Shown one piece after another: positions 5,794-25,603 of a stretch of 64,000 nt of DNA; position 1 is the stretch's first letter; each line of letters starts with the position of its first letter. The translations under genes were made by a program, and so were the position numbers. The stretch is taken from positions 1-64,000 of the IMG/VR virus record IMGVR_UViG_3300010883_019551; one strand, given 5' to 3'. The notes below the pieces were generated by a model, which saw only the letters and a program-made list of their open reading frames with translations, did not search any database and was not told the origin of the DNA. The DNA is from a virus.

Positions 5794-5809
5794 AGATATG
5801 TCAAATTCA

Positions 5810-9289: not shown

Positions 9290-9930
9290 TTCTTCTCCTG
9301 AAGCATTTCATCGTACTTCTTTACTTCTTCTATATTATTCGTTCTGTTGCGACTGTGTATTCTGTAGCGATACATGGGCATTGGCAAGTGAAATAGCTTA
9401 AACTTTTTTAGAAATCTGCTAATGAGATCATGACCTTCTCGCATTTTATAGTCTTCATCATAAAAATTAATATCACATAGGGACTCGTAGGTAAACATAA
9501 CAGCACATGCTATGGGGGCTTCCTTACCCGAGCAATTTTCTACTAAAACACCCACCTCATCAACTTTATTATAGTCACATGAAATAGCCTGATAGCTTCT
9601 GTTCATGTCTAAAAATCTGGACATTGTTTCTAAGAAGTATTTAGAAACATAATCGTCGCTGTCAACACGTACAAAATATCTGCCTCTAGCAACCTTGAGA
9701 ATTTTATTGAGAGATGCTGGTAAGCCTGTATTCTTTTCATTGTTCAGTAAACGAATGTTAAGATCACTTCTCATATTATTGCAAACATCTTCGAGGCGAG
9801 TACCCGGTTCGTCATTGATAATAACTACTTCAAATTTATCTTTTGATAGCGTCTGACTAGACAGACTACGCAGGCATCTATACAACCATTCTTTCTGTTT
9901 ATAACAGCATATGCCTACTGTGATCTTCAT
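9286..9930 (-). CDS. Glycosyltransferase family 2
   Basis: CLRSL, NTGLPASLN, RVDSDD (DxD). Confidence 0.9.
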   Translation of the reverse strand: MKITVGICCYKQKEWLYRCLRSLSSQTLSKDKFEVVIINDEPGTRLEDVCNNMRSDLNIRLLNNEKNTGLPASLNKILKVARGRYFVRVDSDDYVSKYFLETMSRFLDMNRSYQAISCDYNKVDEVGVLVENCSGKEAPIACAVMFTYESLCDINFYDEDYKMREGHDLISRFLKKFKLFHLPMPMYRYRIHSRNRTNNIEEVKKYDEMLQEKK

Positions 9931-10844
9931 ACCGATAAGGATCTCTTTGCTAAATCGAGAGTCGTCAAGAGGGCCTTTGTTTGGCTCTCTTTGGTTGCAC
10001 CTGCTATATGAGGTGTAATTACAACTCTATCTGACCTTTTTGACAATACTAAAATGGGGGACTTCTTAAGTCTGGGTATATTTTGTTCATTTCTTAGAAC
10101 ATCAGCACCATAAAGTATACCCCAGTCTTTGACTAAAGTAACTATATAGTCTTCGTCGACGACTTCGCCTCTAGAGGTGTTTACCACAACAGTCCCCGGC
10201 TTTATATTATCCCAGACTCCCGGTCTGATCATGCTCATTGTTTCACTTGTGAGAGAACAATTAATAGAAATGATATCACAATCCCCTATTTGTCTTAGAC
10301 TCTTGACTGATGTGTATGACATGTTAGTTACATAAGGATCATAGAAGCACACCTTCATTCCGAAAGTCTTTGCGTATTTTGCAACTTTTGTTCCAATTCT
10401 GCCAAGGCCTACTATTCCAATAGTCTTTCCATGGAGTTCGTGAGACCTTAAAAAGAGTTCGTTAGTATTAGATCTCCAACCGGCAGTGGCGTTTACAGCA
10501 TTGGTAAACTTTCTAGTCAAATTCATTATGTGTAGCCAGGTAAACTCTGCTGAAGCATGAATATCTTTTAGTGACTTCTTGTTGTCTAAGAGGCATACAA
10601 CACTAACCCCCTTGGCAATTAATGAGCTAACATCAATGTGGTTTGTACCGGTGGAAGGTGTGCCAACAACGGACAAATTTTTATAATCATCAAAGTAGCT
10701 TGTATCTAAAAACTCACTAGTCCCGGGATTGACAATTACAACTTGTGGATCTTCTGTACACAGGGTCATACCCTTTTCTAGAAGAATTTTGTCTAACTCT
10801 TGGTGCTCAAAAAAATTAACTGGGCATTCTAGCTTGACCCTCAT
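9927..10844 (-). CDS. D-isomer-specific 2-hydroxyacid dehydrogenase
   Basis: STGTNHID, GKTIGIVGLGRIG, NTSRGEVVD, ITPHIAG. Confidence 0.9.
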   Translation of the reverse strand: MRVKLECPVNFFEHQELDKILLEKGMTLCTEDPQVVIVNPGTSEFLDTSYFDDYKNLSVVGTPSTGTNHIDVSSLIAKGVSVVCLLDNKKSLKDIHASAEFTWLHIMNLTRKFTNAVNATAGWRSNTNELFLRSHELHGKTIGIVGLGRIGTKVAKYAKTFGMKVCFYDPYVTNMSYTSVKSLRQIGDCDIISINCSLTSETMSMIRPGVWDNIKPGTVVVNTSRGEVVDEDYIVTLVKDWGILYGADVLRNEQNIPRLKKSPILVLSKRSDRVVITPHIAGATKESQTKALLTTLDLAKRSLSV

Positions 10845-11542
10845 TACTTGACTCCTAACATTATTGCTTTTGCTGTTACTAAATCTATCATGGAGTCGAT
10901 ATTGACAGACACCAGTTCGTCCATGATATAGGGTCTGGACACATCTCCATTTCTAGAAAACTTTTCAACAATACAGTCTCTAGTCATAGCATAAATTGCC
11001 CCGTTTCTAATATAACAGGGCTCAAGATCCTGCCTTCTAGAGCCCTCTCCTTCAGGATGAAGACTACAAAAATCTTGTATTGTATCATCAACTATTTTCT
11101 TCATACGAACTGGATGTTTATCTTGCATTCGGCAGACAGAAATTACACTGTCAGCGCCTGTTGTCACTAATTTTTTATGTGCTTCCTTGATATGAAAAGC
11201 ACCTCTAAGCGGTGCTACACATGGAAGCTCTACAACGTAATCATATTTTTTTTCGAACAATCTTTCGCATTCCACAACAGCATGTTTTAGCGCGTCTCTA
11301 GACCATACATGATCTAGGGAGAGCTCCGGGGGTCGAGAGAACGGTACTAATGCTCCGCATTCCACAGCGACTTCAGCAATTTCTGGAGAGTCTGTGCTCA
11401 CAACAACTTCATCAAAAACGTTGCTGTCAAGTGCTGCTTTTATCGTGTAATAGATTAAGGGCATTCCATGCAGATCAATGATATTCTTTTTTGGAATTCC
11501 TTTAGACCCACCTCGGGCCAGAATTATTGCCAAAGATTTCAT
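10844..11542 (-). CDS. neuA: CMP-N-acylneuraminate (ulosonate) cytidylyltransferase, NeuA/PseF family
   Basis: [32 protein letters not shown]. Confidence 0.85.
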
Positions 11543-12249
11543 ATAAACACTCCTGAATTTCTATAGACATGGTGCAACTGATTCCCCATATCTCTGAGCT
11601 GGATTAATTCGTCTAAGTCCATGGACCCTATATGATCGTTGCCGACCATGCTTTTATCAAGCGTAAAGTGCTTTTCAACATAGAGCGCGCCCCGGGACAC
11701 ATGATGAAGACAATTTGCTATTCCATAAGAATGATCACTTACACCGACAACTGGATACTCATACGATCGATGCTTGGCGCTCTTTTGATCGAGAATACTA
11801 GTTGGATATTTTGATACACAATTAAAGTATAATACATTTGGGCTTTCAAACGGAAGATCCGACGCATTCCAAAAGCCTAAAGAAGTAAAAGTAGGCAGTC
11901 CTGTTTTGATAATATCTTTGCAAAGATCTTGTTCTTTGACCACAGTTCTACTTGCAATCTTAAAAAAGCCTACCCCAAGATCAAGACACCACTCAAGTTT
12001 TTCCTCATCAAAAACAGATGCAAAAAACTCAATATCGTAAGCATTGCAAATGGTCTGTATGTCATACACTTGTTCATAAGTGAATTCATTTCTAGCCCGG
12101 GATGTATCGCCGAAGACCCTTACAGAATCATATAACTGAAACTTTGCAAAGTCCGCGCCACCTAAAGAAGCTTGGCGTATTAGCTCTTCTACCAGACGAA
12201 AATCACCATTATGATTGATTCCTATCTCTGCTATGATCTTAATTGACAT
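11539..12249 (-). CDS. neuB: N-acetylneuraminate/KDN-type synthase (NeuB family), no SAF domain
   Basis: [38 protein letters not shown]; only 236 aa. Confidence 0.85.
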
Positions 12250-12290
12250 ATATTCTTACCTTCTTGATTATAAACTGCAGTTGCATCGTT

Positions 12291-13562
12291 TTATTTAGAA
12301 ATTCTCATTATTATGCCTTGATGTTCTAGCACAGACGAAGCTGAGACTACTTCTTCCATTCTTATGCCGCTGCGGTTAGCAATATCTAACAGATCGTTGT
12401 GGCCATCGCTGTAACTTAGCACCCACTTAATTGCTGTTTGAGAAACTTGATTTACTCTTTGACCCCCAGTCTTTCGATAAAGACCTCGCTTCCCCAGCTG
12501 GGGCTCACATTTAGAGTATGTGTTAATATAAGTGTTGTTTTTTTCCAAGGTATCAACAAACGACAAACAAACACTAGTCATTTCCCTTAGCGAATCTTCA
12601 CTAATTACGTCAAAGTTGTCTGCAGATGTGTGATATTCTTCGAACTCCCCGGGAGGTGTTCTCATTAGAGTTACTACGGGCAAGTTAATACCTGGAGAAC
12701 AATACTGTCTTTCATCAGAGCCTATAGGAGAAAAGTCGTTTTCTTTGTACAACAAACCCATGTCATCAAGAACTATTTTCATTGCCTTGTCCGAAATAGA
12801 AGTCTTCTGGCGGCTCTTCTTGAATGTTATCGGAGCCCTATTACCGGTACACGTAAGATTAACTCCCGCTATAATTTTAGACAAGCTTTTTTCATTTTTC
12901 GAAAGCCATGTAATTGCGCCGATGGTCTCTGGGAGGAACAAAAGTCTATACGTGTGTCTGTGATTTTTATTGGCTAGCTCTTGCGCTAGCTTTATCATAA
13001 CAGAAACACTGCTTAGATTGTCGTTGCACATTGATGGATGACACACGTACGTAGAGAATATAATTTCCTTCCCGGAGGTGCCTGGAAAGACTGCCTCTGC
13101 GTATGTTAAGCTTCCATTTTTATGAGATGCATCAATATACGCACGATACTTTCCTTCTGGTAAGCTGTCTAGGGTATTCTGTGATAGGCAGAACGCCCAC
13201 GACCGGTCATAATACATTGTTCTATAGGGTATCCAGCTTGGATGATCTGGGAGGGTGTGGATATGCTCTTTGAGCAAACCTAAAGTCAGACTTGTATTAA
13301 TGCGCTTGCTATAACTCATTACATGCAGATTGTTTTCCTTAAATTGCGCTATCTTTGACCCATCTGGACAGACTATGTAGGCATCGTGAATAGCCCATTC
13401 TTCCGGTACTTCCCAGTCAAAAACTTTAGTGCCAGTTTCCACCTCATAAGTCTCTAGCGGAATGTACTTAGAAATTATTTCAAATGTCTTTCTTACACCA
13501 GTACCTGTAATAGATCTACAAATAGGGTATAGCTCTTCTATGAGCTCTAGATGACTAATCAT
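12291..13562 (-). CDS. DUF4910/DUF2172 aminopeptidase-like protein with C-terminal HTH
   Basis: RSITGTGVRKT, VFDWEVP, HPSMCNDNLS, GSDERQY, EYHTSAD, EPQLGKRGLY; family often found in nonulosonic-acid clusters. Start at ATG 13562 preferred (ATGA overlap). Confidence 0.85.
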   Translation of the reverse strand: MISHLELIEELYPICRSITGTGVRKTFEIISKYIPLETYEVETGTKVFDWEVPEEWAIHDAYIVCPDGSKIAQFKENNLHVMSYSKRINTSLTLGLLKEHIHTLPDHPSWIPYRTMYYDRSWAFCLSQNTLDSLPEGKYRAYIDASHKNGSLTYAEAVFPGTSGKEIIFSTYVCHPSMCNDNLSSVSVMIKLAQELANKNHRHTYRLLFLPETIGAITWLSKNEKSLSKIIAGVNLTCTGNRAPITFKKSRQKTSISDKAMKIVLDDMGLLYKENDFSPIGSDERQYCSPGINLPVVTLMRTPPGEFEEYHTSADNFDVISEDSLREMTSVCLSFVDTLEKNNTYINTYSKCEPQLGKRGLYRKTGGQRVNQVSQTAIKWVLSYSDGHNDLLDIANRSGIRMEEVVSASSVLEHQGIIMRISK

Positions 13563-14380
13563 GGGCGGCCCCACACTTCAGTTGCAGTCATCATTGTTTT
13601 GTTTCGTACTTCCCCAGAGCTAATGGTGGGAACTGATACACTGTTCTTTAATTCCACTAGACCCGCACTACTTAATGTAGACAGCGCATTTTTATACGAT
13701 CCCTCATTACACCCATCAATATCAAATCTTTGGTGGAACTCTATGATGACTAAGTCTAGACCGTTTAAGAATGATTTATTCTCTTCTAGAAATTGAAATT
13801 CTCCACCCTCGATGTCAATAATGAGAACATTAAATTTCTTCTGGTGCTTTTCTTCTAATTGCTCAACAGTAACCACGGGTAAGTGCACAAAATCAAAGTC
13901 GAATTGATTAATAGAATAGTCTTCTTTTTTTACCTCTGAATCAACCTTAGCGCAGAGGGTAGCCATTTCGTAAGCATTATGACCGAGCCCATCATTATGA
14001 ATCATTGTTGAGCCGGATTGGGGAGCTCCGGACGCTGGATAGTATTTACCGCTATGTTCTCTGAACACTAGACAATTTTCGATGGCATAAGCTGATGCGT
14101 TCTTTTCTTTATTGACACCCAATACCTTAGCTGTCACAGGATTTGCTTCTACAGCAACATGATTACTCTTGTTACTCAGCATACTATTTGCAACTGCACT
14201 TACAACTCCAATACATGCACCTAATTCTAGAATAACATCATCGGGTTTAAGATATCTTTTACACAGCTCAACCTCAGAAGATTCCCATACTCCGTACTCC
14301 AGGGCCTCTAGTGCCCTGTCAGACATCGGCATATTACATGTAGTAAATTCAAATTTACCTACTTTGAAAAACTTGTACAT
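13559..14380 (-). CDS. FkbM-family SAM methyltransferase
   Basis: LELGACIG, VEANP, IDIEGGE, IEFH. Confidence 0.85.
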   Translation of the reverse strand: MYKFFKVGKFEFTTCNMPMSDRALEALEYGVWESSEVELCKRYLKPDDVILELGACIGVVSAVANSMLSNKSNHVAVEANPVTAKVLGVNKEKNASAYAIENCLVFREHSGKYYPASGAPQSGSTMIHNDGLGHNAYEMATLCAKVDSEVKKEDYSINQFDFDFVHLPVVTVEQLEEKHQKKFNVLIIDIEGGEFQFLEENKSFLNGLDLVIIEFHQRFDIDGCNEGSYKNALSTLSSAGLVELKNSVSVPTISSGEVRNKTMMTATEVWGRP

Positions 14381-14382
14381 AA

Positions 14383-15138
14383 CTACTTCCTGTGTCTTAT
14401 TCTCGACATTCGCTTTCTTTCTCTAGCATCAAATAGATGAATGTGCTCGTTTGGCAAAAGTTGCAAACATATTGCATCTCTGTAACCCTTTTTACAATAG
14501 TTTCCCTTGTGTACGATGTTATTGTTAAAAGCAATTGTTGAGCCGGCCGGGCCTGTGAGTTTCTTTTCTCTACCCACAGTTCCCATGGGCATTAGTTTTC
14601 CGTCGGATTCTTTGAAACGTGGACCGCGTAATCCTGAGGGCTTTTTGCTAGTTGGGCATGCATTTAATTTGTGTGGTACAAACTCAACAGGATCCCACAC
14701 ACCAAAGGGCCCCTGACTTGGTCCTACATCATTTAGATAAATAAAGAGTCTGAAGTCTGCATCATGTGTGTTATCAGTGTGCCACGTTTCAGACAGCCAC
14801 ATTGTTTTATTTTTCATCTCATATGCCACATCCTCATACCCACAGCCTCTATCAGTCGCCTTAATAGTGGGGTAAAGACGATAAACTTGAGCATTTGTGA
14901 TTACACACTGATACTCTTTTGCTATTTTTTCGAAGTCAGCCCAACAAAACTGAAGATCATGGAGTTCTCTTCGTAGCTTTTGTCCTTCCCATGTGTAAGA
15001 ATCAAAATCAGTTTGATTCTCTCCTCTAGTAAACATGCTAGCAACCTGTGCTGCGTATTTTTCTGCAAACCAGGCGTATCTTGTGTCTATAAAAATCTTT
15101 GCCCTGTTAACACCTATGGGAAGTGGGGGTCTTTTCAT
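14383..15138 (-). CDS. Fe(II)/2-oxoglutarate dioxygenase, PhyH-like
   Basis: WHTD (HxD), FIYLNDV, GP, GPAGS...HKG...R. Confidence 0.75.
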   Translation of the reverse strand: MKRPPLPIGVNRAKIFIDTRYAWFAEKYAAQVASMFTRGENQTDFDSYTWEGQKLRRELHDLQFCWADFEKIAKEYQCVITNAQVYRLYPTIKATDRGCGYEDVAYEMKNKTMWLSETWHTDNTHDADFRLFIYLNDVGPSQGPFGVWDPVEFVPHKLNACPTSKKPSGLRGPRFKESDGKLMPMGTVGREKKLTGPAGSTIAFNNNIVHKGNYCKKGYRDAICLQLLPNEHIHLFDARERKRMSRIRHRK

Positions 15139-16136
15139 TCAGCGGGTTCCTTCTCAATAATACCTTGAGCTTCCATAGACTCAAATGCATCCACCCAGCC
15201 TGCAAATCTTATACCCTTATCATCAATATACACGCGAGCTCTTGGTTTTTCGCTAGTCACCTTGCCTACAAACTTAGCCATGTCATATTTTTCTAACCAT
15301 TCCCAGACTAATTGTGTGCCTGTTTTGCCATTGACCAAACCTCTATCAGGTTTTGACTTGCATGTATTGATGATGACTGTATAATTGTCTGAAAGTCTTT
15401 TGAGTGCTTCGTAAGCTCCCTCAATTGGCACATCATATATCGTTCCATCATAATACCCTTTAGAGCATTTATGAATAACACCGTCAAAATCGACGCTGAT
15501 GTTGACTTTCTCATCCGGATAGCTATGCTTTCTAATTTTCCCACCCTTCCAGTTGATCTTTTCTAGATCTTCTGGGGAATTCTGTCCTATCGCAGGACAC
15601 TCTTTTCCGGAGCCATGGGTTAATTCATATGTAAGTAATAAAGTTAAAACCTCAGCTGTGTGGTAGTATTCTGCTCCCAGTATAACTTTCGACAAACCGC
15701 TAATCTCAACTGGAATATCCAGTGAGGTTATCATGGCAATTTGCATTCCATGATCGTTCGCCCATTGCAGTGCCTTAAGCACATCACTGGAATTTCCTGA
15801 TGAAGATACTCCTAAGACTAAAGACTTTTTCATTTGTGACTTTGTTCTTGTGCCTGTCCTACAAAACAACCACTGTACCATCCACTGATCAAAGCTGGAG
15901 TCATTGATCAAAGACGTCGCAACAACAGCGCTTCCGGGGCACATTGCATTTTTAGTTCCATTAGAAAGGCGTGTAATATCAACAGCAGCATGGTCAGCAA
16001 CAGCTAAATTGCCACCATGTCCTAACACATAAATGTCATTGCAATTATTAAACTTTTCTTGTAGATCTTTCCAGTCTGGAGTGTTGACAACTCTTACAAA
16101 CTTTTCATCAATATTTTCGAAATTAAGCATTGTCAA
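15135..16136 (-). CDS. SIS sugar-phosphate isomerase (GmhA-like) fused to a HAD phosphatase
   Basis: N-terminal GHGGNLAVADH and SSSGNSSDV (SIS/GmhA-like); C-terminal SVDFDGVIH...KPRARVYIDD (HAD). Confidence 0.8.
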   Translation of the reverse strand: MTMLNFENIDEKFVRVVNTPDWKDLQEKFNNCNDIYVLGHGGNLAVADHAAVDITRLSNGTKNAMCPGSAVVATSLINDSSFDQWMVQWLFCRTGTRTKSQMKKSLVLGVSSSGNSSDVLKALQWANDHGMQIAMITSLDIPVEISGLSKVILGAEYYHTAEVLTLLLTYELTHGSGKECPAIGQNSPEDLEKINWKGGKIRKHSYPDEKVNISVDFDGVIHKCSKGYYDGTIYDVPIEGAYEALKRLSDNYTVIINTCKSKPDRGLVNGKTGTQLVWEWLEKYDMAKFVGKVTSEKPRARVYIDDKGIRFAGWVDAFESMEAQGIIEKEPAE

Positions 16137-16815
16137 TTGCCTCTGTGTGTGATTCTATCATTAGCGTTGTGTCCATTCCCAATGCCAGAACTCCGTACCC
16201 ATCATATTTCGGTATCTCTCTAGCGATATCGGAAGGAATGTGTATACCCATTTTATGTTTCCCAACAGATGATACAACTTTGTCTAGATACTTGTGATAT
16301 AAATCATGATCAAACTGACCTGGGATTCCCAAGCTTGATGTTAGGTCATAAGGGCCTACGAGATAATAGTCAAAATTTCGGCTAGCAATTTGTCCTATAT
16401 TGTCGACTCCTTTCTTAGACTCAATCTGTGCTATCAATAGGGGCTTTTTTGTATCTAAAGGTTCTTGACCCCACTTATTTTGTCGAACTAGTCCCATGCC
16501 TCTTCGGCCGGTGCTTTTTTGGCTTGGGTATAAACACATGCTAGTAATTTTTTCTGCCTGAGCATGTGTCTCAACAGTAGAGAAAATAAGGCCATCAGCG
16601 CCTGAGTCTAGACAGATTCTTACCATAGTCACTGTTTCTTCCGCTAATCGAACAAAACATTTCTTTCCAGAAAGCGTCACAACTTGAATACACGATGTCA
16701 ATGTTTCATTATTAAATGACCCATGTTCTGTGTCTATTACTACTCCGTCACAATCTAAATTTGCAAGAATTTCACTTACAATAGGCGATGGTATCTGCTG
16801 CCATGTCAGTATCAT
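16123..16815 (-). CDS. HpcH/HpaI class II pyruvate aldolase
   Basis: IDTEHG, LDSGADG, GRRGMG, QIESKKGV, GPYDL. Confidence 0.85.
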   Translation of the reverse strand: MILTWQQIPSPIVSEILANLDCDGVVIDTEHGSFNNETLTSCIQVVTLSGKKCFVRLAEETVTMVRICLDSGADGLIFSTVETHAQAEKITSMCLYPSQKSTGRRGMGLVRQNKWGQEPLDTKKPLLIAQIESKKGVDNIGQIASRNFDYYLVGPYDLTSSLGIPGQFDHDLYHKYLDKVVSSVGKHKMGIHIPSDIAREIPKYDGYGVLALGMDTTLMIESHTEAIDNA

Positions 16816-17528
16816 ACAAATAACTCCTCTAGTTTTTTTCTAGGGTACACATGTAAAGCTCCTCCCACAGAGGCATTAAAAATTTTTACGCCCACATTTT
16901 CTGTCATTCTTTTCGCAAGCATATGAGCCTCATGCGAATGTATATCACCGAGTGGGTCATATTTTATAGGATTATACTTGGGGTCAAAATTTGAAGTAGT
17001 AGGCCCAAATCCTAAATCACAACCCAAAAGATATATTTCTTTGAATCCCATATAAGCTGCCAATTGTATACAAGTTAATAGAATCGTGCCCCACTTAGTT
17101 GCTGTCTCCATTGGATTATTTGACCAGTATTCATCAGGGTACGGATAACCTGCTCTTCCACCGGTGGATTTAATCATGTATACGTGATCTAATTTTTTGC
17201 AATCATTGAAAAAGCTTTTTGTTGTGCTATTGATGTCTACAGAATCGCTGTTAAAAAAGCATGGAATTTCTAGCTCGACGTTTTTATTTGCAGACAACAA
17301 CCAGTCATATCGGTAGATATCTGAGCTTACCATAACATAAAAACTGGGGTGCCAATTTCTTTTTTCGTATAGTAGGGATAATTTATTGCACCCAAATGTA
17401 TACTCATCTCGCAGAAGATCTAGATTTGTCTTGTTAAGACTTGGACCATTTCCCAGGATAAAACATCGTTCGCCTTTATGAATCCCTTTATATTCTTTTT
17501 TGTTTTTAACAATCTTCGCTTTTTTCAT
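16812..17528 (-). CDS. DUF115/MptE-like (Maf-type) ulosonic acid transferase candidate
   Basis: RCFILGNGPSL, QLAAYMGFKEIYLLGCD; start at ATG 17528 preferred over 17564. Confidence 0.75.
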   Translation of the reverse strand: MKKAKIVKNKKEYKGIHKGERCFILGNGPSLNKTNLDLLRDEYTFGCNKLSLLYEKRNWHPSFYVMVSSDIYRYDWLLSANKNVELEIPCFFNSDSVDINSTTKSFFNDCKKLDHVYMIKSTGGRAGYPYPDEYWSNNPMETATKWGTILLTCIQLAAYMGFKEIYLLGCDLGFGPTTSNFDPKYNPIKYDPLGDIHSHEAHMLAKRMTENVGVKIFNASVGGALHVYPRKKLEELFV

Positions 17529-18228
17529 TCGTGCCCTCGATCGTCTTCCAGTACAAAATTTCACCTAAAGTGAATTGCCATTCATAGTCAATATCAAATG
17601 ATTCAAGCTCAGGAACAATATAGAGCGCAGGATCAGAATTCTTAAAAGATCCCATCCAAATATTGTCTTTGATTATATCTAGTCGACTTCCGTACATCGT
17701 ATGGGCAGCTTCATATGTCGGTGCGACTGCCTTTGTGTTCATTATAGTCTGGCCTTCTGGCCAGGGTGTTACCATACTACCCTTGTCATTCCAAAAATAG
17801 TTTCTTTTGTCAATAACAGCCATAAGACCGCGCTCTTCTTGATCTAGATAAGCTTGAAAAAATCCATCAATTGACGCTGTTTTAAGCAGAGGATTGCATG
17901 CACTTACTAATACAACATACTTGAACTTGTCCGGCAACTTATTGTGCCACTCGTATATTGTCTGGAGGCTGTTATCATTTGTAGCAGACTCCTCAGATCT
18001 TTCAAATATATTCACGCCGTGCTTGACAGCAACTTCCTTGAGCTCGTTTTCGTATACAGAAACAAAGAAATTTTCTTTTGGTATCACACTGGACGCCAAT
18101 ATTTTTTTAATGCCAATCTCAAATAAAGATGAACCGCAAAACTCTCGAAGCATTTTTCGAGGAACGCGCTCAGAACATAGACGCGCCTGGATTATTACTG
18201 CAACTTCATCTACTGATTTCACTCCCAA
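17506..18228 (-). CDS. CMP-ulosonate cytidylyltransferase (NeuA/KdsB-like), second paralog
   Basis: QARLCSERVPRKM, CNPLL, FDIDYEWQF. Confidence 0.8.
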   Translation of the reverse strand: MGVKSVDEVAVIIQARLCSERVPRKMLREFCGSSLFEIGIKKILASSVIPKENFFVSVYENELKEVAVKHGVNIFERSEESATNDNSLQTIYEWHNKLPDKFKYVVLVSACNPLLKTASIDGFFQAYLDQEERGLMAVIDKRNYFWNDKGSMVTPWPEGQTIMNTKAVAPTYEAAHTMYGSRLDIIKDNIWMGSFKNSDPALYIVPELESFDIDYEWQFTLGEILYWKTIEGTNEKSEDC

Positions 18229-19007
18229 ACTCCTGATAATGCTGTTTTGATCTTGTCATGAGCGTTAACCAGCGTTTCAATTCTGTCAAGATTGATTTGA
18301 CAATCTCCATCGGAGACAGCGGAGGAAGGCTCAGGATGACATTCCGCAAATATTCCGTTATACTGAAACACGTCTGTTCCTAGCAAGAATCTCTCGGCAA
18401 GATCGCTGCGCCCTTGTATTCCATAAACATCTCTGCTTCTTTGGGTTGAGTGGGTGCAGTCAATAAAAACCTTATCATAGTGTTCTTGAAGTACGTCGAC
18501 AATGTCAAAGTCTACCAAGAGTTTGTGATAGCCATGCATGGTTCCACGCTCTGTAATCCATACTTCTGCATTTTCATTGGTCTCACGGACCTTATCAACA
18601 GAAACCACTAGATTATTTGGTCCTAACCACTGTCCCTTTTTAATATTGACAACATCAAAATGTCTAGCACATTCTACTACAAGATCTGTCTGACGACACA
18701 AAAATGCTGGGATTTGAATGCAATCAATAGTGCCCGCTAGCTTCTCAACTTGCCAGACCTCATGAACATCTGTGCATAGTCGAACACCAGGATGTCTATT
18801 TTTTACTTCTCTAAAGATTTCTAGACTTTCCTCTAAGCCCGGACCTCTGCCTCCATGGAGTGAGGTTCTATTGGCTTTATCAAATGATGCCTTCAAGTAC
18901 CAATCACGGCCGTTCATAACTCGAGCTAGCTCGTCAGAAACCTTGAAATAGTTCTCTCTGTTTTCTATAGAACAGGGTCCTAAAACCCATGTTGTCTCAT
19001 CTTTCAT
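18219..19007 (-). CDS. kdsA: 3-deoxy-D-manno-octulosonate 8-phosphate synthase
   Basis: GPCSIE, KASFDKANRTS, QIPAFLCRQTDL, NIKKGQ, ERG, DCTHS, ECHP, DG. Confidence 0.92.
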   Translation of the reverse strand: MKDETTWVLGPCSIENRENYFKVSDELARVMNGRDWYLKASFDKANRTSLHGGRGPGLEESLEIFREVKNRHPGVRLCTDVHEVWQVEKLAGTIDCIQIPAFLCRQTDLVVECARHFDVVNIKKGQWLGPNNLVVSVDKVRETNENAEVWITERGTMHGYHKLLVDFDIVDVLQEHYDKVFIDCTHSTQRSRDVYGIQGRSDLAERFLLGTDVFQYNGIFAECHPEPSSAVSDGDCQINLDRIETLVNAHDKIKTALSGVWE

Positions 19008-19046
19008 CTTTAATTCCTTGTATACACATCAGTTGCGCTCATATCA

Positions 19047-19706
19047 TTATAGCCTGTCTAGGCCTGCTTTGTACACTTTCACACAGGTATTCCAGTCATC
19101 TTCGTAATCAATGTCTAGAGACTCGGGAAAAGATGTCTCATAAAAGTATGGATTGTTCCCAACACGACGGCCTGTTTTCATAAATTTGTCTGCATCAAAC
19201 ATGTAAAAGAGAGAGTTTTCTCTATAAACCTCTTTCAGCTCCTGAGTTGGCAACAATATTTCTGGATCGTGGTTGTGAGGACACATAACTCCTTTTTCAT
19301 TTGTCCATAGGCGTTCTTGTATTACATCACACGCTGTGACAGAATCATGATGTGCTAGTTTAGAAATTGCAGACTTCAAAGTTTCCGGTCTTATAAAAGG
19401 ACTCGTGACATGAACCTGACAAATGGGGCCGGCTACTATGAACTGCATTATAAAATCGGTTATAAGACTACAAACAGAAATGTTATCTCCTAAAAGACTT
19501 GGGTTTCGCTCATATCCTCTTACATGGCTTAAGCTGGGATTGTCGGCGATTTCGTCTAATATCTTGTAGCTATCAGTATCAACATATACTTCAAAATCCC
19601 TAAGACGACTCAAGGTATGCACATAAAGTGGAACACCACCAAAGTCTCTAAAGTTTTTATTAGGTACTCTATTAGAATTCTCTTTTATGGGAACAAATAC
19701 CTTCAT
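19047..19706 (-). CDS. CMP-ulosonate cytidylyltransferase, third paralog
   Basis: PIKENSNRVPNKNF, DTDS, HVTSPF, PTQEL, ENS, DIDYEDD. Confidence 0.8.
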   Translation of the reverse strand: MKVFVPIKENSNRVPNKNFRDFGGVPLYVHTLSRLRDFEVYVDTDSYKILDEIADNPSLSHVRGYERNPSLLGDNISVCSLITDFIMQFIVAGPICQVHVTSPFIRPETLKSAISKLAHHDSVTACDVIQERLWTNEKGVMCPHNHDPEILLPTQELKEVYRENSLFYMFDADKFMKTGRRVGNNPYFYETSFPESLDIDYEDDWNTCVKVYKAGLDRL

Positions 19707-20506
19707 ACATACTTTACCCGCAAGTGTTCTGGCAGGTTAACTAAATGTTCAGGTGTAACTTTGATTATTTCTTCAAGGTGATCTAATTTCAGCTTACTGG
19801 TTTCGAATACTTCCTCGGGGAATAAAAGATTTATGTCACCTACTGATGCTCTGTTGATTGCATCTTCTCTTTCTTCAACAATAGCATGAGCCATCCATGA
19901 TGAAATAGCAGCATCATGGCTAAAACCATCATATAAACTCGGAGGCTCTTCTCGATAGTAGTGAGGTCTTAGACATGATTTAGAATCGTCGCCGCCAAAG
20001 AAGCTAAAGCCGTATGTTGTTGTAGGAAGCCCAGCTGCCTTATGCCCTTCCATGGCTGTGATAACTGCCAGATATCCCGTTGTCCAATTACACACCCTTC
20101 CATCTGATCTTCGTCTAAACTGGCGCTCAGGAAGTACTCTAACTAATGACTTTTCCATGTTGAGAATTGGCGGTCCGATCTCCTTGTACACAGGGCCGTC
20201 CCTTCTAGTGGCATCCCACTTTTTCTTAATCCACACTTCTCTAAACTGGGTTCCGTCACGAAACGCTATTTCATAGTTTTTGGCTCTGGCCCAAATATCT
20301 GTCTTTGTCCCAACATACTCTTCGTAACCTTTAATTTTATAGCTATTGAGCCTAACAACTGTTCGAAATTGATCAATAATTGGGCCATACCTGTTAAGAA
20401 GCACACTTGGTGCGTTTCCGATTATTATACAACCTGATGTCAGATAGTCTAGATCTCCGCCGTATTTTTCTTCCCAGTCTTTCTTTAGTGTTTTGTAGTC
20501 TGACAT
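19703..20506 (-). CDS. GT29-family sialyltransferase-like protein
   Basis: Sialylmotif L (CIIIGNAPS...ID...VVRLN...GYEEYVGTKT), motif S (TTGYLA...YGF), motif III (HYY), motif VS (HAIVEE). Confidence 0.8.
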   Translation of the reverse strand: MSDYKTLKKDWEEKYGGDLDYLTSGCIIIGNAPSVLLNRYGPIIDQFRTVVRLNSYKIKGYEEYVGTKTDIWARAKNYEIAFRDGTQFREVWIKKKWDATRRDGPVYKEIGPPILNMEKSLVRVLPERQFRRRSDGRVCNWTTGYLAVITAMEGHKAAGLPTTTYGFSFFGGDDSKSCLRPHYYREEPPSLYDGFSHDAAISSWMAHAIVEEREDAINRASVGDINLLFPEEVFETSKLKLDHLEEIIKVTPEHLVNLPEHLRVKYV

Positions 20507-21553
20507 TTATTCCTCGCTTAGTTTATCAATTATGTCTTTAGCAGCCATTACACATGTGTCTATCTTTCCAGAGAACACATTTATTATTTTTGGACCTGAA
20601 GATGACACGATGGTGGGTCTTCCATCAGTATCGTCCATGTTAGGTAGCACTGCTCTTACAGTGTACATGGACCCCTTGTATACCGCATCTGATAGAGAAG
20701 GGATATACTCTTTTCCCGTTTCAATAAATTTGGACCAGTTTGATTCAGCCGGATTGATAATAAACCCTCTGTTTAAGTCCTTGATCATGCTAACTGGTAC
20801 TTTGGGAAAGTGTCCTGTGTTGCTATAATGAATTGCGTGTACAACATTTCCCAAAAGAGACAGACCGCTGCGTCCGTACGGATCAACACACATAAAAGGA
20901 CCGTCCATAACAACTATGCTTTTATCCTGAATCTTACGGGGCATTTCTACCCCTATCTTTTCGCATACTTCGAACTGATAGTCAACCCTATTTTCCTCAT
21001 CTAACAGTTCATTAATATTAGCGTATGTACAGTTCAGAACAATATCAAAATTTTCAATATCCTTTTTTGTAAATTTAGTAGCCCAAAGCTTATTAACTCT
21101 AGAGCTCATGAGTCGTAGCCAACATGTATTATACACATTGTGATAGTCTAAGAGGGCTTCCCTTACTTTGACAGTCAATGCTATTTTATCATTATTTACA
21201 TGCTCAAAGTTGTCTACTACTTCATAATCTAAATTAAACGTGTCACAAAACTTGAGGTACTCATCTGGAGACACCATGCTGCCTTCATTAGAAATGCAGT
21301 AATAGTGATCATAGTCATCTACAACAGACTTCCTATACTCATCTACAAAAAAATCAATTGAATTTAGTAATGCTGTAACTGTCTCAGGACTTCTTGGATA
21401 ATGATATCCTCGGTGAAGCCTTAACTGATTTGTACGAGAGGCAGATGTCATAATGTCTTTTCTAGACTCGTAAAGGGTTACGTCATGTTTATCACTTAGC
21501 TTAAGTGCTATGGTTACCCCAAATATGCCGGCGCCGACAACAGCGATCCTCAT
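20507..21553 (-). CDS. FAD-dependent oxidoreductase (DAO-like)
   Basis: VVGAGIFG, NQLRLHRGYHYPRS, SGKIDT. Confidence 0.85.
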   Translation of the reverse strand: MRIAVVGAGIFGVTIALKLSDKHDVTLYESRKDIMTSASRTNQLRLHRGYHYPRSPETVTALLNSIDFFVDEYRKSVVDDYDHYYCISNEGSMVSPDEYLKFCDTFNLDYEVVDNFEHVNNDKIALTVKVREALLDYHNVYNTCWLRLMSSRVNKLWATKFTKKDIENFDIVLNCTYANINELLDEENRVDYQFEVCEKIGVEMPRKIQDKSIVVMDGPFMCVDPYGRSGLSLLGNVVHAIHYSNTGHFPKVPVSMIKDLNRGFIINPAESNWSKFIETGKEYIPSLSDAVYKGSMYTVRAVLPNMDDTDGRPTIVSSSGPKIINVFSGKIDTCVMAAKDIIDKLSEE

Positions 21554-22401: not shown

Positions 22402-23315
22402 TAAAACAATTGTAACACGTGCTTGAAGTATTGGTCAATGCAATCTTCCCAATTTTTTGGCTCTAGAGCACTATTTTTTTCGAATTTGTTTTTCTTAAGT
22501 CGGTTTATAAGCTCATCGAATGATCTGTACACATGATTCTGTCCAACCATTTCAACAGCACCACCTGAATTCCACAGGGCATAAGTTGGAATTTCGCATG
22601 CGAGGCTCTCAATGATATGATTGGGTCCAGGATCGTGTCGAGAAGCAGAAATATACACGTCATAACGGGAAAGCTTTTCGCCTAAGTCCTTTCCGAATGT
22701 AGGTGGAATTATAACAGTATTTTGAAACTTTGCTTTTGTTCGACCGATATAGGTGAATGTGTAATCATTATTGACTTCTAACCACTTATCGAGCATTTGA
22801 TACACATCTTGCCCCTTGAGCGGATTATCGGACCAATGATGCGTTACTAAGTTTATTTTTCCATTATCTAATTTTGGCCTGGGACAGAAGTGTTCCTTGT
22901 TTGTCCCAGAGTACACCACATGATTTCTGAGACATCTCCAATCTTCTTTGGTATGATAGTCCATTATCCAGTTAGAGATAAACACACAAAGGTCTGTAAC
23001 CCCACTGGCGGCGGTTATCACAGGATCTATATCGTTGTCTAAACCTTTTCGTTGATCACACTCATTAATTCTATAGACAACTTTTGTTTGTGGCCGAACG
23101 GCTTTGTATTGTGCTATCTCATTAATCGATATTCCCATCTCATCATATCTTGGGTCAATCATAAAAATAAGATCAATACTTTCGTCCAGCTGATATACGG
23201 GCGTGAAGCCATACTTGGGTGCATATTTGTGGATAGCTTTAACAAAGTTGTTTCCGCCGCCCCACGGACCTTCTACCGGGTTTCTATTGATTAGTATTTT
23301 TTTGTTTCCACTCAT
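22401..23315 (-). CDS. GT-B glycosyltransferase (GT4-like)
   Basis: PWGGGNNF, HHWSDNPLKG, DPGPNHIIESLAC. Confidence 0.75.
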   Translation of the reverse strand: MSGNKKILINRNPVEGPWGGGNNFVKAIHKYAPKYGFTPVYQLDESIDLIFMIDPRYDEMGISINEIAQYKAVRPQTKVVYRINECDQRKGLDNDIDPVITAASGVTDLCVFISNWIMDYHTKEDWRCLRNHVVYSGTNKEHFCPRPKLDNGKINLVTHHWSDNPLKGQDVYQMLDKWLEVNNDYTFTYIGRTKAKFQNTVIIPPTFGKDLGEKLSRYDVYISASRHDPGPNHIIESLACEIPTYALWNSGGAVEMVGQNHVYRSFDELINRLKKNKFEKNSALEPKNWEDCIDQYFKHVLQLF

Positions 23316-24504
23316 CTATTACTCCATAAACACTTTCCAAGTACAGACCGGTTGAATTAAACTCTGCAGCCCCTTCAAGTGTTTCTTTTAGAAATTTGTC
23401 TCTTTCTTCTTTTTTGTCTTCCCACTTATCCAAGACATTAAAGAAGTCCTCATGAACTGATATCGTTCCGTGATAGTTTTCAAAGTTTGCTACATTGCCC
23501 ATTTCCCTTATGATAACTGTTGGCTTGTCAACCTGTAAAGCTTTGAGACACATTGTAGAACCATAAGAAATAATACACTTTGAGTTTGATATAAGCCAAT
23601 TTTCTGCATACTCATCTGCTGTTATAACAAGCGGCATATTCGGGTCAAGTGATGCCCTGTTCTTTGTTACCATACTTTGAAGAAGGTGTACTAGAGCAGC
23701 TTCTTCTTTATTTTTTTCAGATGAGTCAATGATTCTGGGCGGGGGTTTTACCTTAAAGACGACTGGAAGTCTATAACGTTGCCACAAATCATTTATTTGT
23801 AAATTTTCAACGATAGTCATATCTGTTGTCATTCCGTCAAAGTCAACTCTATTAAGAACTATAAGAATATGAGAGTCTGTCTTTACCTCTGCTCTAATCA
23901 AATCATTTGAAGGAATTCCTGTGGTCATTATGTGATTATCAATATCATAAGCCTTGAGCCTATTTCTATCATATTCGCCGTAAATACAGAGCTTGTCATA
24001 AATTTTTCCCTGCTCTAGGGCAACAAACTTCCAAAGCCTTTCATTGTCAACATTGCCATGAATATTAGCAATTACTGGGATGTTTCTTTTTTTCATCTCT
24101 TCATAGAACGGTTCGAAAATAATCTTTGGAACTTGGTGACCTGCTGTTCTGGAGTCGTCGTATATTACACAATCAACATTAAATGTTGAAACCCTATCCA
24201 ACTCATTCACTAACGATGTTAATACATTTTCAATATCACTTTCGTACCAAATAGACACGCCTCTTTCATTAGTCACACGATTGGACCAGACTGTGTATGC
24301 ATGATCTTTGTTAAGACTATGCATTTCTTCCTTGATAACATCCACCTGGCGATTTTCGTTTATTGAATTCAAATTTGCAGCACCTAAAGCAAGAATTAAT
24401 ATATCATGAGTAATAGACAGCTGCTTAATGACGGGCATAATTCTTTCGGTGCGCCACCAATTGGTGCATAAAAATACTATACTACTTCTCATATTGGGAC
24501 TCAT
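23284..24504 (-). CDS. Uncharacterised GT-B-fold transferase (paralog of 24482-25603)
   Basis: Shares DDSR, PVIANxHGN, GxPxND and SYGSTMC motifs with its neighbour; lies in the glycan island. Confidence 0.55.
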   Translation of the reverse strand: MSPNMRSSIVFLCTNWWRTERIMPVIKQLSITHDILILALGAANLNSINENRQVDVIKEEMHSLNKDHAYTVWSNRVTNERGVSIWYESDIENVLTSLVNELDRVSTFNVDCVIYDDSRTAGHQVPKIIFEPFYEEMKKRNIPVIANIHGNVDNERLWKFVALEQGKIYDKLCIYGEYDRNRLKAYDIDNHIMTTGIPSNDLIRAEVKTDSHILIVLNRVDFDGMTTDMTIVENLQINDLWQRYRLPVVFKVKPPPRIIDSSEKNKEEAALVHLLQSMVTKNRASLDPNMPLVITADEYAENWLISNSKCIISYGSTMCLKALQVDKPTVIIREMGNVANFENYHGTISVHEDFFNVLDKWEDKKEERDKFLKETLEGAAEFNSTGLYLESVYGVIDEWKQKNTNQ

Positions 24505-25603
24505 TAATTACATCATAAACAGCTTTCACATATAAATCTGATGCATTGCAGTCTACACCACCTGTTACAGTTCTATTAAGAAAGTCAATTCTTTCGTTCT
24601 CATACTTTTCTGGATTTAGAATGTAGTCAAAATAATCTTCGCCCATCTTTACTTTTGCGTAGTAATCATCAAAATTTCCGACGTCGCCCAACTGTTCAAA
24701 TATTATAGTAGGAATTCCTGCCTGGATTGACTTAAAGCACATTGTGGAACCGTAAGATAACACACATGCTGCAGGTTCAATCAGCTTAATATCACTCTCG
24801 ATCTTGGATATTATATTATACTCGAGTCCTTCCGGAATATTATTCTCTAGCAAAGATATCTCTTTCCGCACACTATGACCAAAGCGATGTTTAAGCTTAA
24901 AAGTTACCGGTAATTTTAGAATGTCTTGGAGTTCTAGTAGGCGCATTCTTTCTAATGTCTTCTTGTCATACAAATACCAGCTGTCTCTTTTGTGTCCAGG
25001 ATTTACAAAATTAACAATAACTAAAATTTGTTCATCTGACCTCACTATGTCAGCAGCAGCATCATTATCTGGGACACCACCTAATAAGAAGAAATCTTTC
25101 TTGGTCATGTCTACTAGATTTTGTTTTTCTTTGGGCCCGAATACAAAAAGCTTGTCAAAGAATTTTTCATGCCCGACGGTTAAAACAGCATTCCAGCGCT
25201 TTGGGTCTTCATTACCATGAGAATTAGCAATGACAGGCACACCGTGCTTTTTACACAGTCTATAAAGTTCATTGAGGCCTACTTTGTCTCTAGAATCGTC
25301 AAGTATTACAACATCAGTAAGCTTATGTGGTATGTCTTTCTTAAAGATATTGATACACTCCCCTCGTAACGCAGGTAGGCCGGCCATCGTCCTGACACCA
25401 CTTGAATTTAATACTTTGCTTATTCTGTCTTTGTTCTTTTCAATTATTTCTGTGAATCTATTAGCCTTATATGGGGTTTGATCGCTTACTTGGCCGGCAC
25501 ATATTACAATAACATCATGAGTTTCAGACATCTTGAGAACTGCTGGGAACATTCTTTCAGCATTTCTATGAATAGTTGCAATGAATACTACCTTTCTTCT
25601 CAT
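24482..25603 (-). CDS. Uncharacterised GT-B-fold transferase (paralog of 23284-24504)
   Basis: Same shared motifs; FKLKHR resembles the KxHP segment of CMP-/CDP-dependent transferases. Confidence 0.55.
   Translation of the reverse strand: MRRKVVFIATIHRNAERMFPAVLKMSETHDVIVICAGQVSDQTPYKANRFTEIIEKNKDRISKVLNSSGVRTMAGLPALRGECINIFKKDIPHKLTDVVILDDSRDKVGLNELYRLCKKHGVPVIANSHGNEDPKRWNAVLTVGHEKFFDKLFVFGPKEKQNLVDMTKKDFFLLGGVPDNDAAADIVRSDEQILVIVNFVNPGHKRDSWYLYDKKTLERMRLLELQDILKLPVTFKLKHRFGHSVRKEISLLENNIPEGLEYNIISKIESDIKLIEPAACVLSYGSTMCFKSIQAGIPTIIFEQLGDVGNFDDYYAKVKMGEDYFDYILNPEKYENERIDFLNRTVTGGVDCNASDLYVKAVYDVINESQYEK

Follow-up and report, generated by a model that had tools for sequence, protein, structure and literature searches.

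Three candidate routes to CMP-activated acidic sugars, one centred on a class II pyruvate aldolase, in the sugar island of an uncultured marine phage

The DNA considered here, referred to as the window, is a stretch of 64,000 nucleotides comprising bases 1-64000 of a 79.7-kb viral contig in IMG/VR (IMGVR_UViG_3300010883_019551), for which CheckV estimates a completeness of 5%. As PHROGs also gives a match to PhoH and a structural-protein match, the latter in an open reading frame (ORF) of 2183 amino acids (aa), the contig is taken to be a fragment of a large phage. Every gene from about position 250 to 38800 is encoded on the minus strand, in most cases overlapping its neighbours or directly adjoining them, and the majority are sugar-related. 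Within this run, the region from 9927 to 25603 encodes three types of synthase, a short NeuB, a 3-deoxy-D-manno-octulosonate-8-phosphate (KDO8P) synthase and an HpcH-type class II pyruvate aldolase, together with three cytidylyltransferases, here termed CTP1, CTP2 and CTP3. In searches of Pfam, NCBIfam and the PDB, all of the genes named in 9927-25603 are intact minus-strand ORFs. Those with which the argument is chiefly concerned are the following.

9286-9930, minus strand: GT2 glycosyltransferase, last gene of the short-NeuB block (Glycos_transf_2, 4.1e-21)
9927-10844, minus strand: D-isomer 2-hydroxyacid dehydrogenase, PGDH/GhrB-like (2-Hacid_dh_C, 4.3e-36)
10844-11542, minus strand: CTP1, a NeuA/PseF-like cytidine monophosphate (CMP)-nonulosonate synthetase (CTP_transf_3, 4.3e-21, 76.2 bits)
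11539-12249, minus strand: short NeuB-family phosphoenolpyruvate (PEP)-dependent synthase of 236 aa (Pfam NeuB, 2.9e-32, 112.5 bits against a cut-off of 22.1)
15135-16136, minus strand: SIS-HAD fusion of 333 aa, with a GmhA-like SIS domain at about residues 25-175 and a HAD phosphatase domain at about residues 210-320
16123-16815, minus strand: metal-dependent class II pyruvate aldolase of the HpcH/HpaI type, which would catalyse the condensation in the third route (HpcH_HpaI, 2.8e-19)
16812-17564, minus strand: MptE/DUF115 (Maf-like) candidate CMP-sugar transferase (MptE-like, 4.2e-12, 46.6 bits against 34.6)
17506-18228, minus strand: CTP2, a very divergent NeuA-like cytidylyltransferase (CTP_transf_3, 1.2e-14, 55.1 bits)
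18219-19007, minus strand: KDO8P synthase (KdsA) of the metal-dependent type (DAHP_synth_1, 3.1e-43; NF003543)
19047-19706, minus strand: CTP3, the cytidylyltransferase conserved as partner of HpcH, NeuA-like and divergent (CTP_transf_3, 1e-16, 61.8 bits)
19703-20506, minus strand: GT29-like (sialyltransferase-like) candidate CMP-ulosonate transferase (Glyco_transf_29, 4.1e-11)
29449-29829, minus strand: cupin (Cupin_2, 1.5e-07)
29786-30124, minus strand: small HAD phosphatase of 112 aa (6e-12 to the EcbF/BcbF capsule phosphatase subfamily)

A model that read only the letters had seen here three parallel ulosonic-acid routes, and its account is referred to below as the original prediction. The three condensing enzymes that it named are all present and intact. 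Their occurrence on a single contig is rare among the approximately 170 viral loci that were fetched using CTP2, HpcH, SIS-HAD, KdsA, CTP1 and CTP3 as queries, and onto which the proteins of the window were mapped; apart from a syntenic relative, L004, the pairing of HpcH with NeuB was encountered among these loci only in L165. Three NeuA/KdsB-type cytidylyltransferases had also been proposed. Three distinct and intact CTP_transf_3 proteins are indeed encoded, all above the Pfam cut-off of 22.6 bits, 22-30% identical pairwise and each with an N-terminal P-loop and a C-terminal xIDx (Asp) motif, but none is KdsB-like. Against cut-offs of 155-281 bits the best scores of KdsB models for the three are 41, 35 and 19 bits; the PseF model scores higher in every case, although its own cut-off of 205.7 is not reached (TIGR03584; CTP1 155, CTP2 46, CTP3 57 bits). 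The cytidylyltransferases that adjoin KdsA in other viral contigs are likewise NeuA/PseF-like and not KdsB-like. Phylogeny had been suggested as a check and bears out the distinction: in a tree built, along with local profiles, from 130 distinct viral CTP_transf_3 proteins, the three fall into separate clades, each with different neighbours. The remark that no NeuC, PseB or LegB is recognisable also holds, as neither Epimerase_2 (PF02350, even at an E-value of 0.1) nor a DegT aminotransferase (PF01041) is found anywhere on the 79.7-kb contig. As for the transferases, the GT29-like protein, the MptE/Maf-like protein and a pair of GT-B paralogues are real, but the paralogues are structurally nearest to NeuC and the 2-epimerases.

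The most informative of the three routes is that of the aldolase, which belongs to a conserved gene set termed cassette X, proposed to consist of the GT29-like gene (19703), CTP3 (19047), HpcH (16123) and SIS-HAD (15135). A CTP_transf_3 gene lies within 5.1 kb of HpcH in 18 of 20 distinct loci, the remaining two being cut off upstream, and with CTP3 as the query HpcH is present in all eight relatives of at least 45% identity. It directly follows CTP3 in six loci, representing two sequence lineages, and lies 5 kb away in one. SIS-HAD abuts HpcH in 15 of the 20 loci, and CTP3, HpcH and SIS-HAD follow one another without a gap in L088, L095 and L098. Seen from the CTP3 clade, which has ten members, SIS-HAD is near all ten, HpcH near nine and a GT29-like gene near eight. 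In the window and in L004, KdsA, CTP2 and the MptE-like gene stand between CTP3 and HpcH; since these two are contiguous elsewhere, the trio is read as an insertion into cassette X. The same insertion is found in L167, a close relative of the window, while in L166 an MptE-like gene, CTP3 and HpcH are contiguous. What distinguishes this locus is that an aldolase cassette stands beside both canonical synthases and is split by an insertion. By virtue of this linkage, a role for HpcH as the synthase of a CMP-activated acid is well supported. In two related loci a different pair of domains is found between CTP3 and HpcH, a HAD_2 (beta-phosphoglucomutase-like) domain and an NTP_transferase domain, fused in L006 (7411-8874) and adjacent in L090 (3094-4427); they resemble the mutase and nucleotidyltransferase enzymes that give UDP-arabinose for phage DNA glycosylation (PMC13326640).

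The original prediction had likewise arrived at a third acid, made by HpcH together with the 2-hydroxyacid dehydrogenase. The linkage of HpcH to a cytidylyltransferase upholds the first part of this proposal. The dehydrogenase, on the other hand, was rejected as a partner of HpcH in the window, for it belongs to the block of short NeuB, CTP1 and GT2 that is also found in L151-L155, and look-alikes of 22-29% identity follow HpcH in some relatives only (L166, L168-L171). SIS-HAD and CTP3, neither of which had been named in this role, are the partners of HpcH, CTP2 being just the cytidylyltransferase nearest to it. That each sugar has an activator of its own agrees with the linkage of HpcH to CTP3 and of NeuB to CTP1 but less well with CTP2, as 55 of the 64 members of its clade have a NeuB nearby.

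HpcH scores 69.7 bits against a Pfam cut-off of 25, and matches PDB entry 7et8 at 4e-20. It remains well below the NCBIfam equivalog cut-offs for HpaI, GarL and YfaU (89, 76 and 65 bits versus 369-441). Residues H31, R56, E132 and D157 do not vary among 14 viral homologues and, matched by eye in the alignment with 7et8, presumably correspond to the catalytic His45, Arg70, Glu149 and Asp175 of HpaI. Class II pyruvate aldolases join pyruvate to an aldehyde, yielding a 4-hydroxy-2-keto acid, and HpcH chemistry would therefore fit a ulosonate synthase. To our knowledge, every CMP-activated ulosonic acid, be it Kdo or sialic, pseudaminic or legionaminic acid, is built by a PEP-dependent synthase, NeuB or KdsA, and a literature search found no publication tying an HpcH aldolase to a cytidylyltransferase and ulosonic acids, or to CMP-ulosonate synthesis. 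The subfamily has 180 database representatives at E-values up to 1e-30, 27 of them above 200 bits, and the long HpcH-containing proteins consist of tandem HpcH domains. When genome contigs were scanned with a profile of the HpcH alignment, only two short contigs from metagenome-assembled genomes were returned, both with CTP3-like genes; these contigs may themselves be viral. The best PDB match of the partner CTP3 is ‘PpNeuA’ (9t4z, 4e-07). The GT29-like gene overlaps the start of CTP3 by 4 nucleotides (nt). Its product exceeds the Pfam cut-off (43.2 bits against 23) through an alignment confined to residues 25-71, the sialylmotif L region, matches ST6GalNAc2 in the PDB at 3e-04, and has as its nearest Atlas clusters phage GT29-like families of 71-147 members.

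The SIS-HAD fusion matches the gmhA model at 1.2e-08 and, when a family profile is used, the GmhA structure 5i01 in the PDB at 3.5e-06, but falls short of the GmhA cut-off of TIGR00441 (35.2 bits versus 209.45). Its SIS motif is GHGGN, not GNGGS, and D53 occupies the position of the catalytic Glu. In a Foldseek search with the AlphaFold2 (AF2) model, GmhA entries dominate the top ranks, 5i01 aligning with TMt 0.75 and a root-mean-square deviation of 2.5 Å over 178 columns; the best SIS domain from an arabinose-5-phosphate isomerase is that of 2xhz, with TMt 0.62. Thus, in its sequence and predicted fold the SIS half is closest to GmhA. Both HAD motifs of SIS-HAD, DFDG and YIDDK, are invariant, and the C-terminal half is distantly similar to the small HAD protein encoded at 29786; a profile search of the PDB gave no match for this half. 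There are 1129 database homologues of the fusion, the 120 listed being 74-87% identical to it. The matches among GenBank phages cover the HAD part only, in proteins of Rhizobium, Streptomyces and Gordonia phages. A marine viral ‘gmhA’ auxiliary gene is mentioned in two reports (PMC9238414 and bioRxiv 2024.05.16.594516), and SIS-HAD is taken to be that gene. In loci L100-L107 SIS-HAD is directly followed by a CTP_transf_3 gene of another clade, a 2-oxoglutarate (2OG)-Fe(II) oxygenase, a DegT aminotransferase and a formyltransferase.

The inserted trio carries what is here called cassette K. KdsA marginally reaches the cut-off of NF003543 (244.4 bits versus 242) and lies below that of TIGR01362 (238 versus 314). 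Its translation contains FDKANRTS, GPCSIE, CTHSTQ, ECHPEP and SDG; we take KANRS/T to be the hallmark that sets KDO8P synthases apart from 3-deoxy-D-arabino-heptulosonate-7-phosphate synthases, and Cys12 and the His, Glu and Asp of CTHSTQ, ECHPEP and SDG to be the metal ligands of the metal-dependent class. The last 10 nt of the KdsA gene are shared with CTP2, an arrangement suggestive of coupled translation. The single PDB match of CTP2 is the mouse CMP-N-acetylneuraminic acid (Neu5Ac) synthetase (8e-05). The 93 viral relatives or loci of CTP2 reduce to a clade of 64 distinct proteins, of which 55 have a NeuB of 283 aa nearby, 46 a small HAD gene and 27 an MptE-like gene within 6 kb. KdsA is near only two of them, those of the window and L004, and in the window it occupies the slot held elsewhere by NeuB. 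Viral KdsA genes are usually accompanied by NeuA-like cytidylyltransferase clades of their own, by a small HAD gene and by GT29-like genes. From their adjacency we infer the pairing of KdsA with CTP2. The MptE-like protein carries a GNGPS motif (ILGNGPSL).

The small HAD gene and the cupin, farther upstream in this minus-strand run, are accessory genes that accompany NeuB or KdsA cassettes in relatives. Homologues of the former are near 11 of 15 KdsA-linked cytidylyltransferases, and a homologue of the latter lies directly upstream of CTP2 in L074. The cupin was present as the original prediction had it, and modest support was obtained for the idea that it supplies mannose-6-phosphate for an acid resembling 2-keto-3-deoxynononic acid (Kdn): such genes recur beside cytidylyltransferases, and L006 encodes a CTP_transf_3-cupin fusion (3625-4764) with a weak mannose-6-phosphate-isomerase signal.

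Short NeuB, CTP1, the 2-hydroxyacid dehydrogenase and GT2 form a third unit, cassette Z, conserved as a four-gene block in L151-L155, where GT2 holds the same position at 59-71% identity. Among the members of the CTP1 clade the dehydrogenase is immediately downstream, and NeuB directly upstream, in six of six. The synthase, the only NeuB-family reading frame on the contig, consists of the TIM barrel only and ends at residue 236, where the barrel ends. A C-terminal SAF/antifreeze-like domain is typical of NmNeuB, PseI and LegI; a Pfam search finds no match to this domain in the short NeuB. The equivalog cut-offs of NeuB_NnaB (122.9 versus 399.65) and PseI (96.3 versus 340.25) are not reached either. 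Its best PDB match, 6ncs, is itself a short NeuB of 290 aa, and the metal- and PEP-binding motifs, including EKH, are kept. CTP1, whose gene shares 4 nt with the end of NeuB, matches the CMP-NeuAc synthetase 6ifd in the PDB at 5e-36, while the dehydrogenase reaches no NCBIfam equivalog cut-off. As the contig has neither Epimerase_2 nor DegT, the NeuB product is more likely to be Kdn-like than to be Neu5Ac, pseudaminic acid (Pse) or legionaminic acid (Leg). On the same ground Pse and Leg routes were rejected, and non-amino ulosonates, Kdo or Kdn-like, are more likely here.

The syntenic relative L004 allows the selection acting on these genes to be gauged. Nine of the ten genes compared have 64-92% protein identity, with dN values of 0.06-0.25. 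In the three for which dS could be computed, namely the 2-hydroxyacid dehydrogenase, CTP1 and CTP2, dN/dS is 0.03-0.06; in six others dS is not computable, which is read as saturation. HpcH, which has an ambiguous base and hence no dN/dS value, is 82% identical to its counterpart by tblastn. With such identities, and low dN/dS where it can be computed, the compared genes are constrained and show no signs of decay or of being pseudogenes. What has been observed, as distinct from inferred, comprises the assignment to families, the intactness of the catalytic motifs, purifying selection and the patterns of gene linkage.

Taken together, these data suggest that the stretch is the core of a sugar island of approximately 38 kb in an uncultured marine phage, a mosaic in which three cassettes of separate inheritance would each make, CMP-activate and transfer a 2-keto-3-deoxy acidic sugar of their own. 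We give this reading a probability of about 0.5. In cassette X, the GmhA-like SIS domain would convert a ketose phosphate to an aldose phosphate, and the class II aldolase would add pyruvate to give a 3-deoxy-2-ulosonate phosphate. The fused HAD domain would strip the phosphate, either before or after the aldol addition, and the acid would then be converted to a CMP-sugar by CTP3 and transferred by the GT29-like enzyme. Such a series of reactions would parallel that leading to Kdo, except that a class II pyruvate aldolase would take over from the PEP-dependent synthase. Since KdsA and NeuB are also retained by the phage, it is simplest to regard the product of the aldolase as a third acid, distinct from theirs. 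In cassette K, KdsA would condense arabinose-5-phosphate with PEP to form Kdo-8-phosphate, which either the HAD protein at 29786 or the fused one would dephosphorylate; Kdo would be activated by CTP2 (17506) or a host KdsB, the MptE/Maf-like protein (16812) being the candidate transferase. In cassette Z, the short NeuB (11539) would join PEP to a hexose, free or phosphorylated, that carries no amino group; the best guess for the product is a Kdn-like acid. CTP1 (10844) would activate that product, with the dehydrogenase (9927) and GT2 (9286) belonging to the same block.

It is attractive to go one step further with cassette X. If the GmhA-like domain is heptose-specific, HpcH might condense pyruvate with D-glycero-D-manno-heptose or its 7-phosphate to give a C10 3-deoxy-2-ulosonic acid, activated by CTP3 and transferred by the GT29-like enzyme. 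This is a speculative proposal that we consider a long shot. Should it be true, the C10 acid would represent a sugar class not seen before, and the way in which it is formed, independent of PEP, would likewise be new and widespread among marine phages. For CMP-activated ulosonic acids whose backbone exceeds C9, the only reports to date are mass spectra from Magnetospirillum (bioRxiv 10.64898/2026.04.20.719630).

The remaining genes of the region, and a further group upstream of it in the same run, are listed here.

12291-13574, minus strand: DUF4910/DUF2172 M28-aminopeptidase-like protein with a C-terminal winged helix (DUF4910, 7.9e-99; HTH_47, 8.9e-24)
13559-14380, minus strand: FkbM-type methyltransferase (Methyltransf_21, 1.2e-10)
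14383-15138, minus strand: ORF without a family match, with a lead to PhyH-like 2OG-Fe(II) oxygenases
20507-21553, minus strand: FAD/DAO-like oxidoreductase (DAO, 6e-09), conserved in L004
21550-22401, minus strand: GFO_IDH_MocA oxidoreductase (2.4e-15), conserved in L004
22401-23315, minus strand: weak GT1/GT4-like GT-B protein (Glyco_trans_1_4, 5.7e-04, under the cut-off)
23284-24504 and 24482-25603, minus strand: paralogous GT-B-fold proteins (28% identity, 2e-51)
29786-33007, minus strand: small HAD, HldA-like PfkB kinase, HldC-like nucleotidyltransferase of 130 aa, HldD and GT9 heptosyltransferase

Among these, the DUF4910 gene, which sits between NeuB and the FkbM methyltransferase gene, is found in only one of the fetched loci, L004. 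The ORF at 14383-15138 has no Pfam or NCBIfam match; its nearest Atlas cluster is 60% PhyH (score 0.97), a lead only, on which its product could hydroxylate a sugar. The DAO-like and GFO_IDH_MocA proteins are possibly sugar-tailoring enzymes. Neither GT-B paralogue has a match in Pfam or NCBIfam. The AF2 model of the one at 24482-25603 (pLDDT 94) has a GT-B fold whose nearest structures (VIA) are NeuC 5zlr, with Z 22.3, and UDP-GlcNAc 2-epimerases, with Z 21-22; GT1 transferases, with Z 20-21, are within the tie margin of the 2-epimerases. A sequence-recognisable Epimerase_2 identity was rejected for the paralogues, as they have no PF02350 match and hhalign gave no homology to a viral Epimerase_2 alignment (probability 0.1). 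On the predicted fold they may be either transferases or 2-epimerase-like enzymes.

Other parts of the island lie on the same strand. Between 29786 and 33007, 14 kb from SIS-HAD, there is a near-complete set of genes for ADP-L-glycero-D-manno-heptose, in which the HldA-like kinase matches PDB entry 4e84 at 2.6e-16, the HldC-like protein CTP_transf_like at 8e-21 and HldD the E. coli structure 1eq2 at 1e-76. An O-carbamoyltransferase (Carbam_trans_C, 9e-64) and a UDP-galactopyranose mutase (GLF, 1.4e-76) are encoded at 25613-28349, and methyltransferase genes are found at 13559, 33921, 34639 and 36080, the last two under the Pfam cut-off. On the other side, 7557-9289 holds tandem UDP-glucose/GDP-mannose dehydrogenase-like genes of just 287 and 290 aa, each with the N-terminal and central domains and no match to the C-terminal domain. 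These are followed by a short-chain dehydrogenase/reductase (SDR)-type epimerase/dehydratase gene at 6689-7567, and homologues of these genes are recurrent in many related islands. A PD-(D/E)XK nuclease gene and two GT4 genes at 3298-6667, both of the latter matching the Pfam ‘GT4-conflict’ model, form a conserved backbone; in dozens of viral contigs of marine origin, as in the cultured Baltic Flavobacterium phage immuto (L164, NC_055915), it flanks a sugar island of highly variable content. This phage, with which the backbone of PD-(D/E)XK, two glycosyltransferases and a sugar island is shared, is a distant relative and the only cultured one; among GenBank phages, the 9-26 kb region has no DNA match and CTP2 no protein match. 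From this arrangement one may suspect that the host belongs to the Bacteroidota and that the island exchanges cassettes in the manner of an O-antigen locus.

A number of observations weigh against three separate routes. The contig is an incomplete piece (5% by CheckV), and the neighbour counts are partly biased, since genes of the window itself served as queries in fetching the loci; with respect to synthases, bias is absent only from the searches with CTP2 and CTP3. A KdsB identity had to be rejected for all three cytidylyltransferases, the KdsB models being outscored by PseF, and CTP2 in particular may not have switched to Kdo, given the NeuB linkage of its family and the 63 of 69 family-conserved positions that it retains; a host KdsB could activate Kdo in its place. 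In L100-L107, SIS-HAD occurs with a cytidylyltransferase and no recognisable synthase on contigs of 28-73 kb; in the three of these contigs that were searched there is no NeuB, HpcH or DHDPS-type aldolase. Moreover, as HldA-, HldC- and HldD-like genes and a GT9 gene are present and there is no other GmhA, SIS-HAD may serve ADP-heptose synthesis here, besides or instead of cassette X. The prophage proteins EpaA/EpaB, in which a CTP_transf_3 domain is coupled to an oxidoreductase and which alter a nonulosonic acid in a glycan (PMC12053666), show that such a combination can rework an existing nonulosonate. Finally, we infer the substrates and products of all three routes, the identities of the sugars, be they Kdo, Kdn or other, and the matching of transferases to donors.

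One way to accommodate some of these points is to suppose redundancy, with SIS acting as an arabinose-5-phosphate isomerase, the fused HAD as a Kdo-8-phosphate phosphatase and HpcH and KdsA feeding a single Kdo pool, so that two or three of the cytidylyltransferases share the same or nearly the same acid and one or two ulosonates are made rather than three. In keeping with this, SIS-HAD accompanies a KdsA gene without HpcH on two of five contigs tested, the giant virus CroV fuses isomerase and phosphatase for Kdo synthesis, the isomerase SIS domains 2xhz and 5uqi are among the fold matches too, and leftover duplicates are plausible in mosaic islands. Yet GmhA fits the SIS domain better than these isomerases do (TMt 0.75 against 0.62 at best), gmhA is its top NCBIfam match and the KdsD and KpsF models give none. 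Dispensable duplicates are disfavoured by the identity and low dN/dS values recorded against L004, and the low mutual identity of the cytidylyltransferases, in different clades with different neighbours, also argues for distinct roles. We consider redundancy unlikely.

A reading modelled on EpaA/EpaB, in which CTP1 with the dehydrogenase, or CTP3 and GT29 with the FAD and GFO oxidoreductases, would epimerise or oxidise an existing ulosonic acid of host or phage, is distinctly unlikely. It would account for the dehydrogenase behind every CTP1, for the oxidoreductases flanking GT29 and for the 2-Hacid_dh-like genes after HpcH in some relatives. Since CTP1 has its own NeuB directly upstream in six of six and CTP3 is found with HpcH in eight of eight, however, each adjoins a plausible synthase, and no cytidylyltransferase-reductase fusion occurs in the window. 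Alternatively, SIS-HAD could supply GmhA and a GmhB-like phosphatase to the ADP-heptose pathway at 29786-33007, HpcH being metabolic or scavenging and only the NeuB and KdsA routes real. HldA-like, HldC-like, HldD and GT9 genes are at hand, and SIS-HAD is the sole SIS gene and the sole GmhA-like gene on the contig. This is difficult to reconcile with the abutment of SIS-HAD and HpcH in 15 of 20 loci, or with the linkage of HpcH to CTP_transf_3 in 18 of 20, including loci that have no SIS-HAD (L173, L166), which a catabolic role leaves unexplained. In 32 SIS-HAD loci, moreover, tblastn finds no homologue of the window's HldA-like kinase or GT9 and an HldC-like gene in one (L092); matches to HldD are uninformative, being of 22-30% identity and overlapping those of another SDR gene. 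Such an exclusively heptose-directed reading is highly improbable, although the two roles of SIS-HAD, in cassette X and in ADP-heptose synthesis, are not mutually exclusive.

A conserved viral cassette built around a class II pyruvate aldolase would open a new way into the ulosonic sugars, and probably to a new sugar; its presence together with both canonical synthases in one tight co-directional run argues that its product is neither Kdo nor that of NeuB. The marine viral ‘gmhA’ auxiliary gene, with its many homologues, would gain a concrete pathway setting, and the locus would offer three synthase-cytidylyltransferase pairs on one template for mapping the specificity of CMP-synthetases. Three acidic sugars could serve a phage in decorating the virion, in changing the host surface or in some other use.

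Of the known systems, the canonical CMP-Kdo pathway (KdsD, KdsA, KdsC, KdsB) is alike in its logic of isomerase, condensation with a C3 donor, phosphatase and CMP-activation, and the window has a metal-type KdsA with the KANRT motif. It differs in having no KdsB-clade enzyme, all of its cytidylyltransferases being NeuA/PseF-like, and no KdsD-type isomerase with SIS and CBS domains, its SIS domain being GmhA-like; its HAD is small and PNKP/EcbF-like, without a match to KdsC. In cassette X, furthermore, the place of the PEP-dependent synthase is taken by a class II pyruvate aldolase, whose fold family is a different one. A viral version of the pathway is the Kdo route predicted for CroV and Fadolivirus (PMC9614988), in which the CroV protein crov265 unites Kdo-8-phosphate phosphatase and arabinose-5-phosphate isomerase domains, steps 3 and 1 of Kdo synthesis, within a 38-kb viral sugar cluster; the window is similar on both counts.

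The route from mannose-6-phosphate to Kdn employs a synthase of the NeuB type and a phosphatase together with a CMP-Kdn synthetase (PMC6200933), as in Bacteroides thetaiotaomicron (BT1714/BT1713 plus CMP-Kdn synthetase) and Prymnesium parvum, a combination of NeuB-family synthase, HAD and NeuA-like enzymes without amino-sugar steps. This matches the widespread viral cassette of HAD, 283-aa NeuB and CTP2 as well as the lack of NeuC and aminotransferases in the window, and the cupin fusion of L006 fits it too. The NeuB of the window differs in its length of 236 aa, in being 25-33% identical to the 283-aa viral NeuBs and in being paired with CTP1 instead of CTP2. With EpaA/EpaB the window shares a phage-borne CTP_transf_3 near oxidoreductases (PMC12053666), but those proteins have no synthase of their own and rely on host Pse, whereas each cytidylyltransferase of the window adjoins a candidate synthase and none is fused to a reductase. 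The aldolases HpaI, YfaU and GarL (PDB 7et8, 2vws and 1dxe) are of the same fold family as HpcH, in which the presumed metal- and pyruvate-binding His, Arg, Glu and Asp are invariant. While their known members are catabolic, acting in the breakdown of aromatics and sugar acids, the viral HpcH subfamily is found in sugar islands, beside CMP-transferases.

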